DNA of 41,512 nucleotides from Candidatus Latescibacterota bacterium. GTDB taxonomy: Bacteria; Latescibacterota; UBA2968; UBA8231. The notes beneath the pieces are model-generated. The model was not told the DNA's origin and did not search any database. It saw nothing but the letters and a program-made list of their open reading frames with translations. Positions 373-27,923 of the stretch are shown piece by piece. The position numbers were made by a program, and so were the translations under genes. How positions within the stretch are numbered: position 1 is the stretch's first letter; every line of letters starts with the position of its first letter. The stretch spans positions 1 to 41,512 of the forward strand of contig CBDBIJ010000109.1 in NCBI GenBank assembly GCA_965205655.1, in the 5' to 3' direction.

Positions 373-636
373 CTCGTCTTCGGTCTTGCTGCTCAGCAGG
401 CTGATGAGATTGTGCTTCAGCTCGATTCGCTTGCGCCGGATCTCCGCCTCCCCGGCGTCTGGAGGACAGACCTTGAACGCCGCCTCGAGACCGAAATGCC
501 GGTCCAGGGCGCCTGCCGGATTGACACGAACCGGTCCGACCTCGGTGAAGGTGGGACAATCTGCCTTGTTGTAATCGGGGGTACTGGCGCATCCAGCCAC
601 AGCTGCCCAGGAGGCAGCCAGGAGAGCGCGCCTCAT
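373..636 (-). pseudogene. FliL-like lipoprotein, 3'-truncated by IS256
   Basis: Lipobox AVAG-C. VRVNPAG..RHFGLEAAF..AEIRRKRIELKHNLISLLSSKTEDE matches the FliL pattern VNL..RYL..IRD.II.LLSSKT.EEL. The remaining ORF residues (to 307) read into the IS. Confidence 0.6.
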
Positions 637-1070
637 GACACGGCGGAGGGATCTCTCAGTCGGGGCGCGTCTTCTATCCTGGATTCGTCCGCGGATGTCG
701 ACCCGTCCAATCTGATGGTCTGATCACGCAGGCGCCGCTCCAGCGGTGGGGGCTCCTCCACTGGCGCCGAAGACATATTCGCCCGTTCCTCCACGAGCTT
801 CGTGAGCCGATCGACGCTCGCGTGGGCTTTCTCGGCGAATTCGGTGCGATCCTTCATGATTCCGAACAGTTCGGCGCTCACTTCCATGGCGGCAAGTATG
901 GCCACTTGGGCCTTGGGCAGCTTGCCGTCGTGGGTCTCGGCGATTTCGCGCATCTTGACGTCTACGTAATCGGCCACCTGCTGAACTTCCCCGGGGTCGC
1001 CACCGATACGGTACTCCTCACCGAAGATTTCAACGATGACCCCTTCGATTTCTTTGCCGCGATTCGCCAT
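633..1070 (-). CDS. zapA: cell division protein ZapA with disordered C-terminal extension
   Basis: VEIFGEEYRI..VADYVDVKMREI..VAILAAMEVSAELF plus a coiled coil. Start taken at ATG 1070. Confidence 0.85.
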   Translation of the reverse strand: MANRGKEIEGVIVEIFGEEYRIGGDPGEVQQVADYVDVKMREIAETHDGKLPKAQVAILAAMEVSAELFGIMKDRTEFAEKAHASVDRLTKLVEERANMSSAPVEEPPPLERRLRDQTIRLDGSTSADESRIEDAPRLRDPSAVS

Positions 1071-1157
1071 TTGACTATCCGTGCGAAAGTATAGACGTGG
1101 CTGTGACTTACAATGAAATGTATAGTCCTGCGCCGCATTCGGCAAGCTAGGCTGCGC

Positions 1158-18506: not shown

Positions 18507-18553
18507 TTGCATGTGTTGGCCATATGGCTTATTTTATAGAGCAGTTTGGCCAA
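18507..18553 (+). promoter_or_regulatory. putative promoter and operator of the Xre-RES TA operon
   Basis: TTGCAT-17 bp-TATTTT with a perfect palindrome GCCATATGGC (18519-18528) in the spacer and a degenerate copy GCAGTTTGGC (18541-18550). Confidence 0.5.
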
Positions 18554-18573
18554 GACGACAGAGGACTATATCG

Positions 18574-19119
18574 ATGACGATTCGAAAGAAACGATCGCGA
18601 CGAGGCCCCGGCGAGCGCCGTCGACCGAAGCCAGGCGTCATTCTGACCTGGACACCGCAGGGAGTTCGACCTGGGAAGGCGACTGGCCTCAAAACGAGTG
18701 CACCCGCGAGGCGCCGGGTTCCTGGCTCTTCCGTGGGGGTGGATGAGCGTGATACACGAGGCGTTATTCGAGCCCTGAAGCAGGGTCTGCCGATTTCCGC
18801 TTTCGAGGGGCTCCAGGCGGAGTTGGAAGTGTCCTCGCAGACACTCGCTGCTGCCACCAACATCGCGGTCCGCACGCTGACCAGACGAAAACGCGAAGGC
18901 CGCTTGCAGCCGGATGAGTCCGAGCGGCTCTATCGAATCGGTTCCCTCTACGACCGCGCGGTCGAGGTGCTGGGTGATAGAGACGGCGCCAGACATTGGT
19001 TCAAGAGCCCCAAGCGGGCCTTGAACGGCGAGGCGCCGCTCACGTACGGTGACACCCAACCCGGTGCGCGCGAGGTCGAAGACCTGCTTGGCAGACTGGA
19101 GCATGGTGTCTTCTCGTGA
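18574..19119 (+). CDS. Xre/MbcA/ParS-family antitoxin (DUF2384)
   Basis: IAVRTLTRRKREGRLQPDESERLYR..ARHWF..ALNGEAPL..GAREVEDLLGRLEHGVFS. Start at ATG after SD GAGGA. Confidence 0.9.
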   Translation: MTIRKKRSRRGPGERRRPKPGVILTWTPQGVRPGKATGLKTSAPARRRVPGSSVGVDERDTRGVIRALKQGLPISAFEGLQAELEVSSQTLAAATNIAVRTLTRRKREGRLQPDESERLYRIGSLYDRAVEVLGDRDGARHWFKSPKRALNGEAPLTYGDTQPGAREVEDLLGRLEHGVFS

Positions 19120-19589
19120 CTGTCACTGCCTGGCGCATCGTACAGGCAAGACTTGCTGGCGACGCATTTACAGGCGAGGGCGCTCGCCTGTTCGGCGGTC
19201 GCTGGAACCACAAAGGCACTCGCATGGTGTACACGGCCGGTTCAGTCTCACTGGCTGCGCTCGAGCTTCTCGTCCACCTCGAGGCACCACAGCTGCTCGA
19301 GTCGTTTGTCCAGATCCCTGTCGAATTCAACGAAAGGATTTGCTCCATCCTGGACCCGGCCAGTTTGCCCGCTGACTGGACCGATAGCCCAGCGCCCGCG
19401 TCCACCAAGGACCTGGGTACCGAGTGGGTCGGAGCCCATGAAACTGCGGTCCTCGCCGTCCCAAGTGCCATCGTACCCACCGAGTCCATCTTCCTGCTGA
19501 ATCCGGAGCATCCGGACTTCGAGGCCATGCGTATTGGCAGGCCTGGCAGTCTCAAGATCGACGCTCGTTTGCTGAAATCGCTTCGATAA
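19116..19589 (+). CDS. RES-domain toxin (MbcT/ParT-like NAD+ phosphorylase)
   Basis: AWRI..GEGARLFGGRWN..VYTAGSVSLAALELLVH..VPSAIVP..LLNPEHPDF. GTGA overlap with the antitoxin. Confidence 0.92.
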   Translation: MTVTAWRIVQARLAGDAFTGEGARLFGGRWNHKGTRMVYTAGSVSLAALELLVHLEAPQLLESFVQIPVEFNERICSILDPASLPADWTDSPAPASTKDLGTEWVGAHETAVLAVPSAIVPTESIFLLNPEHPDFEAMRIGRPGSLKIDARLLKSLR

Positions 19590-22946: not shown

Positions 22947-23801
22947 ATGTCCGCCCAAATAGATCCTCAAGACTTCGTGAGAACCCTCCTGCCCATAGTG
23001 CGCCAGTGCGCCCAAACCTCCCTAATCTTCTACGGAAAAGTCGCCAACATCGGCAAAGCCGAAGACACCACCCTCGACTCCTGGGAAGGACGCCAAGCCT
23101 CCAGCGCCCTCACCGTAATCGACAACGCCCTGCAGGACATCATCCTCAACACCGTCGTGGAGAACTACCCCGACATCCGATGCATCGCCGAAGAGGACAC
23201 ACCCATCAGACGACGCTTCGCCGGCAACAAATCGAAGTACACCCTCATCCTCGATCCCATAGACGGCACCATCCACTTCGTGCAGGGAGACGCCGCCTAT
23301 CACATCTGCGTCGGCCTCGCCTGTGACGGCTACATGGAGGCGTCCATCATCGCCCGCCCCACCGAGGACAAGATCTTCACCGCTATCCGCGGACACGGCA
23401 GCTTCGTCCAAATCGGCACCCAGCGACGACGCCGACTGCGCCTGGGGCGCACCGCGAAGACGAAGAGGGCCTACCTGTCGACGAAAGCGCGGGCCTACCA
23501 CAAAGCCGCCCAACGCGAGCTCGTAACCCAGGAGCATCCGGTCGGCGCCGCCCTCGCCCTTACCGGCGTGGCCGAAGGAACTTTCTGCGCCTACTTCACA
23601 CGACAGGTAGAAGTGCACGACGTGGGACCGCCGTCACTGATCGCAGAAGAGGCCGGCGCCCGCTGCTTCCTGAGGGACAACCGCTCCCCTAGGTATCACA
23701 CTCAGCGAAAATTCGGGCTCTACAGGTGCGCCGCCACGCCTGAGCTCGAGGTCATTCTTCAGGAGATCCTGCGCACTGGCGCTCGGAGCGACGGCGCGTG
23801 A
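22947..23801 (+). CDS. inositol monophosphatase (FIG superfamily) protein
   Basis: IAEE..ILDPIDGT motif and HDVGPPSLIAEEAGA (WD..AG..I..EAGG-like). Confidence 0.82.
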   Translation: MSAQIDPQDFVRTLLPIVRQCAQTSLIFYGKVANIGKAEDTTLDSWEGRQASSALTVIDNALQDIILNTVVENYPDIRCIAEEDTPIRRRFAGNKSKYTLILDPIDGTIHFVQGDAAYHICVGLACDGYMEASIIARPTEDKIFTAIRGHGSFVQIGTQRRRRLRLGRTAKTKRAYLSTKARAYHKAAQRELVTQEHPVGAALALTGVAEGTFCAYFTRQVEVHDVGPPSLIAEEAGARCFLRDNRSPRYHTQRKFGLYRCAATPELEVILQEILRTGARSDGA

Positions 23802-24993
23802 CCACATCTGCCGCCACCGCATTCGGCCGTCAATCGCGGCGCATGCGCGCCGTCGGCAGTCCTGTCATCCTTGACGTGGCCCTTCTCATCGAAGCGAATC
23901 CCGGGACGATTTCTCTCGGCCAGGGCGTCGTCCACTACGGCCCTCCCCCACAGGCCCTGGAGGCCGTGTCCCGGTTCGGACACGAGGTCGCCGACAACCA
24001 CTATCAGGGTTTCAATGGCATTCCGGAGCTCGTATCCGGACTCGAGCGAAAGCTCGCCGTCGAGAACGCTATTCGAGTCGGCGCCGATCAGGGCCTCGTG
24101 GTCACCGCCGGCAGCAACATGGCCTTCTTCCACATCGTGCTGGCGATCTGCGATCCCGGTGACGAGGTCATCATCATTTCGCCCTTCTTCTTCAATCACG
24201 AGATGGCCATTCGCATGGCGAGCTGCCGCCCAGTGCTGGTACCTGCCGACGACCGTTACCAGCCGCAGCTCGATCTGATTCGCGACGCCGTCTCGCGGCA
24301 TACTCGCGCCATCGTGACGATCTCACCGAACAATCCGGCGGGCGCCGTCTATCCACGAGAGGACCTCGTCAAAATCAATCGCCTCTGTGCTGAACGAGGA
24401 CTATATCACATCTCTGACGAGGCCTACGAGCACTTCACCTATGAGAATGCCGAGCACTTCTCTCCCGGATCCATCGAGGGAAACGCTCCCCATACCATTT
24501 CCCTCTTCTCATTTTCGAAGACCTACGGCCTGGCGAGCTGGCGCGTGGGCTACATGGTCACGCCCGCTCACCTGCTCGAGGCTCTCGACAAGATTCAGGA
24601 CACCATCCTTATCTGTCCGCCGGTTGTTTCGCAGCGAGCTGCGGTTGGCGCGCTGCGGGGGGGGCCGAATACTGCCGGCCCTTCATCGATGCGATCTCCG
24701 AGGTGCGCCGCAGCTGTCTGGAGCATCTCGAGACGCTGGGCGCCGCCTGCACGGTGCCGCCGACCCAGGGCGCGTTCTATTTGCTCGCCGAGCTCGACAC
24801 CGCCCTGGGAGCCATGGACGTCGTCGAGCGTCTCATTCGGGAGTATGGCGTTGCCGTCATCCCCTGCTCGGGCTTCGGTATTACAGATCGCTGCGTTCTC
24901 CGTCTTTCGTACGGCTCGCTGAAGCCTCAGGCCGTCGAAGAGGGACTGGATCGACTGGTGGGTGGATTGACCCGGATCCTCGACCGCGGATGA
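23798..24993 (+). CDS. PLP-dependent class I/II aminotransferase (frameshift in G8 run 24657-24664)
   Basis: ISLGQG, VTAGSN, SPNNPAG, ISDEAY, SFSKTYGLASWRVGY. Continues in ORF 24703..24993 (GAFY, VAVIP.SGFG, LRLSYG). Confidence 0.9.
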
Positions 24994-25005
24994 GCAGATA
25001 TTGCC

Positions 25006-25034
25006 TTGACACTCGATCGCCGTTCTTCTACCTT
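25006..25034 (+). promoter_or_regulatory. sigma70-type promoter
   Basis: TTGACA-17 bp-TACCTT. Confidence 0.65.
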
Positions 25035-25044
25035 GCAGGTTATT

Positions 25045-25160
25045 AAAGAGTGACCTGAACTCGCGAATGATTGCCCAACAGGAAGTTTTCCACTTCCTTG
25101 CGATGTGGCGCTTCGACAAAGATTATTCGGCAATTCTGGCGAGTTGGTCGCTCTTTTTTT
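25045..25160 (+). ncRNA. candidate structured small RNA or leader (~116 nt), family unassigned
   Basis: Nested stems 25045-55/25146-56, 25058-64/25139-45, 25069-75/25129-35 and hairpin 25080-98. G-U pairs favour the + strand. Starts ~10 nt after a -10 box and ends in U7. Confidence 0.55.
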
Positions 25161-25185
25161 GTCCCCTTCTTCGTGTGACAACGTC

Positions 25186-27923
25186 GTGCGTCGTGCGCTG
25201 CTCAAACGCCTGATCTCCTGCTTCTTTCTCTGCCTGACCGCCACTTCCGACCTGCGCGCTCAGGACATCGCCGCACGGCCCGACTCGCTCGACTTCGGCC
25301 TCCGCAAGCACGGCAGCCGCGGCACCGCCGAGCTCGAACTGACCAGCTCGTCCGATGAGCTGCTCGAGGTCGTGGTCACCTCGAGCGGCGGACCCTTCAG
25401 CGTCGGGCCAGATACCTTTTCCATAGCCAGCAACACCGGCAGGAGCCTTGTGGTCGAGTTCGCCGCGTCGCGTCTTGGCGAGCACAGCGGTGTCCTCATC
25501 GTCGAGGTCAAAAAGCTCTTCGGCTCTGAGAAGATCACTGTCCCGCTTCGTGCCACCGTCGTCAGACCAGAGCTCGACGTCGTCCCCGAACCGTCGGTGG
25601 GGCTTCAGATGGGGTCGGTGTCGATCGGCGAGACGGCGACCCGCATACTTCTCCTGTCCAACCCGAGTCCGGTGGCGCTTCTCCTCGACAGCCTGTACTT
25701 CGAGAGCCAGGCCGGTCCACTGGAGCTCGAGACAGCTGGTCCACTCGAGCTGGCCGCCGGTGAGCAGGTCTCGATCTCTGTTTCCTACACGCCCGGCAGG
25801 GGCGGTGAGCTGACCAACCGCCTTCTCCTGTTGTCGTCGGATCTCGACCCTTCACATATCGCCATTGCCGTCACCGGCGCCGGGCTTGCCCCGGCGGCCG
25901 CGGTTTCACCGCTGCCGGAGATCGGCGTCGATTCGGCCTCATCGAAGTCGGCACCTCGTCGCGGCGCACTGTGACAGCTCTCAACAAAGGCCAATCGCGC
26001 CTCGACATCGGTTCAATCGAGGTGGACGGGACCGGATTCTCATTGTCGAGCGCGGTCGATTCCCTCGCCGTTTCGCCCTCGCAGCGGCGCCAGATCAAGC
26101 TTCGGTTCAATCCGGTGCGCGAGGGTGCGGCGACGGGATCGTTGCGTTTTGATACGAACGATCCGGACGCACCGCACATCGAGCTGACACTGGAGGGTCA
26201 GGCCCGCGTCACGCCGGCGAAGATCGAAATTCTCAATGACACGACGATCACCTTCGGACGCGTCGGGCTTGGAAAAAACTCGCGTGAGCATCTACTGCTG
26301 TGGAACCGGGGCGGCGACGCATTCACGGTCGAGCTCGGGCTCGAGGACGGTAGCCCGGAGTTCGAGCTGGCGACCTCCGCCATTCTGCTTCAGCCCGGTC
26401 AGAGCGGCCGCGCGGAGCTGAGGTTCCAGCCAATTGATGTGGGCAAACGGCGGGCCTCGTTGTGGGTTCTGACAGAGGCGGGAAGGCGGCCGTTCCGGCT
26501 CGAGGGGACGGGCGAGTTTCTCAAACTGAGTCCCACCGTCGAGGACTTCGGTCGCGTGCCGGTGGGCGAGACCGCCAGCAGGGTCGTCGAGCTCACCAAC
26601 ATCGGCAATGCCGACTTCACCATCACTCGCATGACCTCATCGAGCGATGACTTCGCCATCATCACCCAGGTGTCGGCACAGAACGAATTCTTTTTGCCCG
26701 CCAATGGACTGCGGTCGCTGCCCCTCAACGTCAGCTTCGCCCCGGCGGCAAGGGGTCTCAGCACCGGATTGCTTCGCGTCGAGGGCTTCTGGTCGGAGGG
26801 AACGGAGACCTTCGAGATCCTGCTGAATGGAACCGGTATCGCCGCTGAGATCGAACTCCATCCCTCCGGAGCTCTCGATTTCGATTATGTCGTGCTCGGC
26901 GACGTGCAGGTCCGCACCCTCGTGGCGACGAACACCGGTGATACGGCGCTGCGGGTCGAGGCCAGTCCGCTCACCCGGGAGGCTCGCGTGGATCCCGCCG
27001 CCTTCTCGTTGCAGCCTGGCGAATCTACCAAGCTCGCCGTCTCCTTTCAGCCCGAAACGCTCGGCGATCGATTCGGCCAGATTCTGCTGGTGAGCAACGA
27101 CGTTCGCGACAGAGCGCAACCGATCAAGATCAAGGGACACGGCGCCCTTCGCGCCATCGATCTGAGTGCCATCACATCGGTGCGCGTGTCGCGAAAGTCC
27201 CACACCCGGGAGCAGCCCGTGGCGTGGACGAATGCGCCCATCGTGTTACTCGACGGCACCAAGGTCGACCTCGTGTTCGAGCTACCCGACTCCCTGCGCG
27301 CGGCGCTGATCGGACGCAAGATCGACATCGAGTGGGTCGAGCTGGACGAGAACTACGATCCAAGGGGCGGGCCCAAACAGATAGAGGTGCAAATCTACGA
27401 CGACGAGAGCGGTACCGCCGTCGCCGAGGACCTCAACCTGCAACTGCAGGAGAGCGGCATCAGGCGAGTGCGGCTGCGCCTCACGACGCGCAGCTATCCG
27501 GGCGCTTCTCCGCACTCCATCTCGCAGATATTCGAGGCCGGGGGGTGGAAATGGGAGTTCGAGGCGAAGCCTCTGGTCTCTTTCCTGACAATACGGCCCG
27601 GCCGCGACTACAGGGGCCCCGACGGTGAGATAGTCAGAGGAGAAACAGAGCGGCTGATTGGTCTACCCGGCATCGCCTTTGCCGGCTGGCACGATTCGGA
27701 GAATCCCTCCGTTTCCGGCATCCACTTGACTGCCATCGGCAACGTTCTGGAGGCGCTCTCCACCGACAACGCGATCGCCGTGTCTCTCGGCGTCGCCGTT
27801 TCTCTCTACAAGGACAGGTTCCTGCTCGGTATCGGTTGGGACATCTACGATTCTCGCCCCAGGGCGAGACGCAAGGGTACGCAGGATTACATCATGACCA
27901 TGAAGTACTCCGGCTGGTTCTGA
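25186..27923 (+). CDS. secreted protein with six ASH/choice-of-anchor-D Ig domains and a beta-strand-rich C-terminus (frameshift ~25932)
   Basis: Signal peptide from GTG 25186. Repeated xDFG..N.G..L...F.P..G...G.L...SND units. Adding one T gives GVDFGLIEVGTSSRRTVTALNKG and joins the two ORFs. Ends YIMTMKYSGWF. Confidence 0.78.

Follow-up and report, generated by a model that had tools for sequence, protein, structure and literature searches.

A stretch of 41,512 nucleotides from a Candidatus Latescibacterota bacterium, referred to here as the window, contains a separately transcribed RNA gene of about 115 nt, which almost all sampled members of one class of uncultured Latescibacterota have retained. 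The gene is class-wide and uncatalogued, and by the features tested it is not a member of the 6S RNA family RF00013. We tentatively propose, by analogy, that its product is a minimal 6S-type decoy of RNA polymerase with inverted topology, that is, a natural circular permutation acting in trans as a housekeeping RNA.

The gene body lies at 25045-25160 on the plus strand, as found with blastn and model R1, and forms a rod with an asymmetric central bubble. Upstream is a sigma70-type promoter on the same strand. Its -35 box (TTGACA, 25006-25011) was read in the sequence and is of a type common among the homologous loci, and its -10 box (TACCTT, 25029-25034) follows after a 17-nt spacer; in contigs from 3 of 4 other sequencing runs C25031 is a T and the box reads TATCTT. 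A simple consensus scanner called 0 promoters at the RNA locus, and the promoter is called because it is conserved across homologous loci, not because of the scanner. Transcription probably starts at about 25040-25045. The gene ends in a U-tract (U7, 25154-25160, plus), which is present in the aligned homologues, and the closing arm of the rod appears to double as the terminator stem before it. An earlier note on this DNA, made from the sequence alone, had listed the TTGACA-17-TACCTT promoter, the pairing arms, a hairpin, the U7 tract and an alternative helix, all of which were found where it had placed them (arms 25045/25146, 25058/25139 and 25069/25129; hairpin 25080-25098; alternative helix 25065/25121). 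The stretch is also AT-richer than its flanks, as had been remarked, with a G+C content of 0.47 versus 0.64 and 0.65 in the 500-nt flanks. Folding of the RNA stretch gave -47.1 kcal/mol (z -4.23) and 0 of 200 shuffles were equally stable. A small protein encoded here was ruled out, as the lengths of the homologues differ by non-triplets.

The neighbouring genes, both on the plus strand and assigned with Pfam, encode a class I/II aminotransferase upstream (23798-24993) and a HYDIN/ASH Ig-domain surface protein downstream (25186-27923, probable GTG start at 25186). Each has a one-base frame break, near 24664 and near 25931 respectively. Contigs from 2/4 and 3/4 other runs carry an extra base at these two places, so the breaks are probably assembly errors or strain-specific. 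One strain has an insertion inside the HYDIN-type gene (near window 25707) like a palindromic repeat-like element at G000:C125 from 3451 (plus), the latter met in a screen for rods. Elsewhere in the window an Xre/MbcA antitoxin and RES-domain toxin pair was seen at 18511-19589.

The closing arm of the rod is formed by a 5' strand at 25045-25075, with covariation in helices 1 and 2, and a 3' strand at 25129-25156, also with covariation (both plus). It comprises about 10 bp, an invariant UG bulge (25056-25057), 7 bp, a small internal loop and a further 7 bp. The bubble has a short strand of 6 nt (25076-25081, plus), the final G of which is found in 61/61 sequences, and a long strand (25115-25128, plus) of 14 nt in the window copy and 11-17 nt across the family (13-16 nt in 56/61, mode 14). 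The long strand opens with GACA in 56/61 sequences and with GUCA in 5/61, and GG usually comes next. Above the bubble is the apical stem (25082-25114, plus), whose fold is conserved across homologues and consists of 6 bp, a bulge, 4 bp and a variable loop. The RNA is 106-121 nt long in 58/61 sequences, with two of 137 nt and one incomplete. Invariant UGAA and GGAAG blocks are spaced 20-23 nt apart in 31/31 sequences, with variable sequence between them. Three other families have an extra hairpin of 5-7 bp 5' of the rod (12/12 examined) and the promoter about 15 nt further up, and one family, that with the 137-nt form, has a longer apical arm.

Covariation, which the earlier note had named as a check on its reading, was found in the alignment of homologues. 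In an unfitted alignment of 30 sequences 96.4% of the cells of the 33-pair structure were paired, and two-sided changes occurred at 13/33 pairs versus 5.9 in shuffles and 2-6 in slid controls. A broader alignment of 31 sequences (A4) gave 20 pairs with two-sided change, a count that leans towards the structure since this alignment was fitted to it. The apical hairpin AGGAAGT-TTTCC-ACTTCCT, part of the original reading, is indeed the minimum-energy form of the window sequence, being favoured by only 0.4 kcal/mol (-45.1 versus -44.7), but it is not the fold kept among homologues, in which 25082-25093 pairs with 25105-25114. The 5' strand of the apical stem can adopt this hairpin as an alternative.

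A 221-nt blastn query found matches in 24/24 other genomes of the same family, nearly all of them confined to the RNA stretch. Model R1 matched 111 of 151 genomes of the phylum, with 108 of the 114 other genomes of the window's class (62/63, 25/30, 2/2 and 19/19 by family) and 2 of 36 outside it, these being counts over incomplete genomes whose kin are not independent. Both matches outside the class belong to the family with the 137-nt form (2/2 genomes); the remaining eight families gave 0/34, and looser searches in them found no full homologue. On sister-class genomes R1 and R2 found only terminators and one coding match. Fifty pattern matches in named genomes were mostly from Latescibacterota, some being labelled Gemmatimonadota, and one from an Actinomycetota was a partial chance match. 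Twenty of the matches to a 13-mer, taken from genomes lacking the RNA, lay inside long open frames and R2 scored none of them, while of two plasmid and phage collections one gave a single 24-nt chance match and the other none. Weak second matches in two genomes of another family (L139:3001-3117, minus, and L140:3001-3117; E 0.006 and 0.02) look decayed or divergent and have lost the apical motifs.

No Rfam family matched the window at gathering score and only two chance matches were obtained for 24500-25600 at E<=10; the RNA matches no catalogued family in the Rfam scan which the earlier note had advised. Its statement that a tRNA cloverleaf and the SRP core are lacking also agrees with the scans, no tRNA being found and RF00169 having no match at the locus. 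The claim of a novel, independently transcribed structured RNA was upheld by the promoter, the U-tract and the rod conserved throughout the class. In the literature searched, mainly freely accessible, this RNA is undescribed. The main text of PMC5737381 does not mention Latescibacteria, and the motifs it deposited in Rfam are covered by the Rfam scans made here.

The surface-protein gene begins 25 nt past the U-tract, a HYDIN-type Ig gene follows the RNA in 21/23 main copies of the window's family and read-through from the RNA promoter is possible, all of which favours the suggestion made at the outset of a cis-acting, switching leader that attenuates this gene. Whether homologues always precede the same gene had been put forward as a way to separate cis from trans action, and they do not. 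The HYDIN-type gene follows the RNA in 0/13 loci of other families, where the next genes are mutL, glutaredoxin, HDOD, a sigma factor, RidA-like, PhyH, a convergent prs or unassigned. A convergent gene comes next in both remaining main copies of the window's family, at two loci belonging to another family and in 6 of the 12 second copies of the RNA described below (ahcY). The 8-bp alternative helix of the proposed switch is present in the window sequence but costs 5 kcal/mol there, and it is complete in only 1 of the 57 homologues scored, 4/61 sequences having been impossible to anchor. Given the variety of downstream genes, the many convergent ones among them and a switch helix complete in just 1/57, the RNA is not regarded as a leader, nor does it lie always 5' of related same-strand genes in the manner of a riboswitch. 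The convergent contexts already largely refute the leader, which is very improbable, and the context suggests instead that the RNA acts in trans with no tie to a neighbour. In a single genome a sigma70-family gene (regions 1.2 to 4; L128:3175-4095) was observed directly downstream of the RNA.

The window's genome contains SRP RNA (65 bits, elsewhere than the locus), RNase P and tmRNA, and no 6S RNA was detected in it with RF00013 at E<=10 or with a profile of 35 canonical 6S RNAs. RF00013 gave no hit in the RNA region at E<=10, and 6S-Flavo (RF01685) matched in 0/5 genomes at E<=10, that of the window among them, and had no match in the scan of the locus region. Over the whole phylum the RF00013 cut-off of 46.4 bits was reached in 0/151 genomes. 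Weak full-length 6S hits appeared in only two families (5/6 and 1/1 genomes), both without this RNA, and none of the genomes carrying this RNA has a detectable 6S. The weak loci (L086-L091) represent canonical 6S RNAs of full length that score 23-43 bits, short of the Rfam cut-off, and are candidates for the Rfam seed; no publication on 6S RNA in Latescibacter was found in the mainly freely accessible literature. The argument from this vacancy is soft, since this RNA and 6S are both missing from 27 genomes in seven other families and since only 4 of the 14 control genomes score at or above the RF00013 cut-off. A promoter-first screen of the window's genome for end-paired rods placed this RNA first of 12.

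The 6S gene usually lies after zapA and before ygfA or rny. The E. coli gene was seen to fit this order and the neighbours of the present RNA differ from it. The zapA-rny gap in the window's genome amounts to a few bases, with no room for a 6S gene, and both zapA regions, both rny regions and the ygfA genes, when read by eye, showed no 6S-like element. Two ZapA-family hits, two genes for RNase Y and, ahead of rny, a zapA-like frame with an apparent frame break were noticed at 633-1145 (minus) of the window and in L120, L142 and L143. Upstream of one zapA copy (L120 about 1940-1780, minus; G000:C29) are a strong promoter, a GC-rich hairpin and a U-tract, possibly a further small RNA or leader.

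Geometry was compared with canonical 6S RNAs from another phylum, the best 30 of 56 hits being used. In this set the template strand has 14 nt in 26/30, starts with AACA in 27/30 and is followed by GG in 30/30. The present RNA has the rod with a central bubble between two interrupted helical arms that 6S requires, the helix adjoining its long strand is of 4+6 bp as in the RF00013 consensus, and about 16 nt separate the bubble edge from the paired AA that follows the bulge, as in E. coli 6S. If the long 3' bubble strand is read as the template, the closing arm becomes the upstream duplex. The constant distance between UGAA and GGAAG, despite the variable sequence separating them, resembles the pattern of a protein contact at two sites. 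The short strand has 6 nt in this RNA versus 13-17 nt in 29/30 of the canonical RNAs (best 30 of 56), in which its counterpart is mostly folded into a hairpin.

On the permuted-6S proposal, the closing arm of about 24 bp with its fixed UG bulge would serve as an upstream, -35-like promoter duplex touching sigma region 4, and the asymmetric bubble would enter the polymerase cleft with the 14-nt 3' strand as template and the 6-nt 5' strand as non-template, leaving the short apical stem as downstream duplex. When NTPs are available, synthesis would start opposite the C of GACA (C25117) and give a 13-nt product reaching the exact top of the apical stem, the predicted template (25105-25117, plus) being placed from 6S geometry. 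The product would strip off the 5' strand of the apical stem, the freed strand would fold into the hairpin seen by the earlier note and the polymerase would be released. According to PMC8876501, product release occurs at 13-14 nt with strand refolding (13 nt in E. coli), and engineered 78-nt and circularly permuted 82-nt forms of B. subtilis 6S-1 bind, template a product and release. The hallmarks of 6S products given in PMC8414754 are an A adjoining the start and a GG at 4/5 or 5/6; an invariant A follows the predicted start in this RNA, while positions 4-5 of the predicted product are GA in place of the conserved GG.

The strand freed by the predicted product is able to form the hairpin in 59/61 sequences. 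The bases that it needs include a bulged U kept in 57/59 and the bubble G kept in 61/61, both unpaired in the ground-state fold, the neighbouring bulge base being kept in 39/59. Taken singly the hairpin is weak (median p 0.15 against shuffles), and an analogous one was found in 30/30 canonical 6S RNAs (best 30 of 56). No enrichment was seen for a collapse helix of the B. subtilis kind (median p 0.56) save in 3 sequences of two families.

Homology to canonical 6S RNA was sought in several ways. Half, permuted and native profile HMMs (nhmmer) missed E. coli ssrS and six Latescibacterota 6S RNAs, and R2 run without filters gave no match on the same loci. A structure-aware nested permuted model placed ssrS at rank 190 of 782 peaks and its native-order version at 245. 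A -35 module, chosen after viewing the E. coli sequence, ranked ssrS 6 of 1052 with one profile and 58 and 204 with others, and on 30 independent 6S RNAs (best 30 of 56) it gave 4/30 at p<=0.05 with a mean z of 0.06. With a canonical-core profile the window RNA ranked at best 2586 of 57566 in its genome; across the family, with one canonical row dropped for mis-anchoring, the predicted register was chosen in 4/61 sequences and reverse complements scored nearly as high (z 1.54 versus 1.76). In viral contigs a canonical-order pattern gave 4 hits, which were ascribed to chance, none being an Rfam match or a paired rod. A native-order pattern gave 0 hits there and one further pattern two matches, and nothing was found in viral contigs by RNase Y proteins, Fau proteins and one 6S pattern. 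In metagenomes 10/10 hits to a 3'-half pattern were in native order, with no canonical-order relative. Permuted 6S is thus an analogy and not proof, five homology tests having failed or stayed marginal. The case rests on vacancy and geometry, not on homology, and the proposal is therefore placed a shade short of an even chance. The short 6S-like RNA first suggested survives as the best lead on these two grounds, but not as a match to the known family.

Promoters of two types were found among 66 distinct loci, 51 having a sigma70-type pattern, 11 a sigma54-type pattern only and 4 neither, with patterns that were composed after viewing the sequences and that each occur in 0.2% of genome windows (75 nt). 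Twelve of the 64 genomes of the window's family have a second copy of the RNA. The sigma54-type promoter is found on 11/12 of these second copies, and all 11 loci of this type are second copies. The window's genome encodes RpoN and has its second copy at G000:C65:26538-26646 (minus). This copy (L032:4039-4147), with a sigma54-type promoter, is preceded by a KDPG aldolase gene and followed by a TPR gene. In the tree 8 of 11 distinct second copies fell into one supported clade, and a single clade of all 11 was rejected (p-AU 0.004, from 117 columns with long branches). A sigma54-type second copy would allow an activator-controlled signal to add decoy and so move polymerase off housekeeping promoters. 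The fuller scenario, in which a natural circularly permuted 6S RNA of about 110 nt replaced canonical 6S class-wide and a paralogue was recruited repeatedly to sigma54 promoters, may hold but is put appreciably short of an even chance.

The same promoter pattern bears on a different explanation, that the conserved RNA binds or titrates another protein as a sponge or scaffold, with the two invariant blocks as the binding site. Pairs of small RNAs under sigma70 and sigma54 control sequester RapZ or Crc-Hfq, and the dual-promoter pattern is known from sponge RNAs. The sigma54-type promoters on 11/12 second copies, for which 6S RNA has no counterpart reported in the literature searched, the fixed spacing between the two blocks, and the failed or marginal outcome of all the 6S homology tests argue for such a partner. 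However, no candidate partner gene travels with the RNA, a Ro60 (TROVE) gene was found in 0/61 class genomes (control positive in 2/14), and there are no repeated GGA loops, the bases before GGA varying among the homologues. Binding of another protein would also explain neither the 6S vacancy nor the GACA strand of 14 nt, and a protein partner of this kind is considered rather unlikely.

A 6S derivative of normal polarity, with the closing arm as its downstream duplex and the apical stem as what is left of an upstream arm that lacks the -35 region, would suit the resemblance of the invariant UGAA/UU module to the canonical 6S downstream helix, the longer apical arm of the 137-nt family and the in vitro function of a 78-nt 6S RNA without a -35 region (PMC8876501). 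The UGAA/UU module gave 7/30 at p<=0.05 and a mean z of 0.83 with one profile on 6S RNAs (best 30 of 56), but the signal was lost with the full 31-sequence profile (0/30; best 30 of 56). Moreover, the would-be template, the 5' bubble strand, is only 6 nt and variable and most members have an apical arm of 10 bp, leaving normal polarity improbable. Still less credence is given to a base-pairing small RNA with the conserved CUUCGACA stretch as its seed. CUUCGACA is the most conserved run and is partly unpaired, and the stand-alone promoter and U-tract would be in keeping with such an RNA, but the unpaired conserved bases number only about 4-5, the remainder is a covarying rod of fixed length, and a 9-nt complement near a zapA gene is easily expected by chance.

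Many bacterial lineages are without an annotated 6S RNA. If the RNA is a permuted 6S, search models are by their very design blind to forms of this kind, and further examples may lie hidden in these gaps; the RNA would then be a minimal promoter mimic of natural origin that defines what the polymerase needs from an RNA decoy, and the copy driven by sigma54 would connect sigma factors in a new way, one inducing a decoy against another. A natural permuted 6S RNA and a sigma54-driven 6S RNA would both be new to the literature searched, mainly freely accessible, in which the only circularly permuted 6S found is an engineered construct. Should it prove not to be 6S, it remains a housekeeping RNA that spans the class and has no Rfam entry, with an alignment at hand and a testable two-promoter logic.

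Several known RNAs invite comparison. Bacterial Y RNAs, the partners of Ro60, are about 110 nt long with a 5'/3' stem carrying a bulge and a U-tail. The present RNA is like them in all these respects, but the Y-RNA-like reading offered in the earlier note is not supported, as no TROVE gene was found in the 61 class genomes and the RNA has neither an Rfam match nor a tRNA-like domain. Small SRP RNA (RF00169) has the same size and rod shape; the true SRP RNA lies elsewhere in the genome and does not match here. With 6S RNA (SsrS, RF00013) it shares a stand-alone gene with a strong promoter, an interrupted rod with a central bubble, and about one copy per genome with paralogues in some. It also shares a 14-nt A/U-rich strand starting RACA beside a 4+6 bp helix and then GG, and an A after the predicted start. 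Unlike 6S RNA, it is about 115 nt rather than about 150-200, has no Rfam score and no demonstrable sequence homology, lies away from zapA-rny or ygfA and has a sigma54-type paralogue. Its long strand is 3' and its long arm is closed by the ends, whereas the canonical template is 5' with the -35-like region in the apical arm; its opposite strand is 6 nt and its apical arm has about 10 bp. In another phylum, canonical 6S RNAs were seen in which the apical arm is shortened and the length is only about 155 nt (L215-L218, L223), which indicates that arm reduction happens. 6S-Flavo (RF01685, 108 positions; PMC2864571), a divergent 6S that came from comparative genomics, has a similar model length, but there is no covariance match and the consensus letters in the supplement of PMC2864571 differ. 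A further comparison is with the engineered B. subtilis 6S78 and 6S82cp (PMC8876501), for which a short-armed bubble and a capped downstream helix suffice for the 6S cycle in vitro; those RNAs are artificial, lack the -35 arm and bind about tenfold more weakly, whereas the present RNA is natural and has a 24-bp arm.
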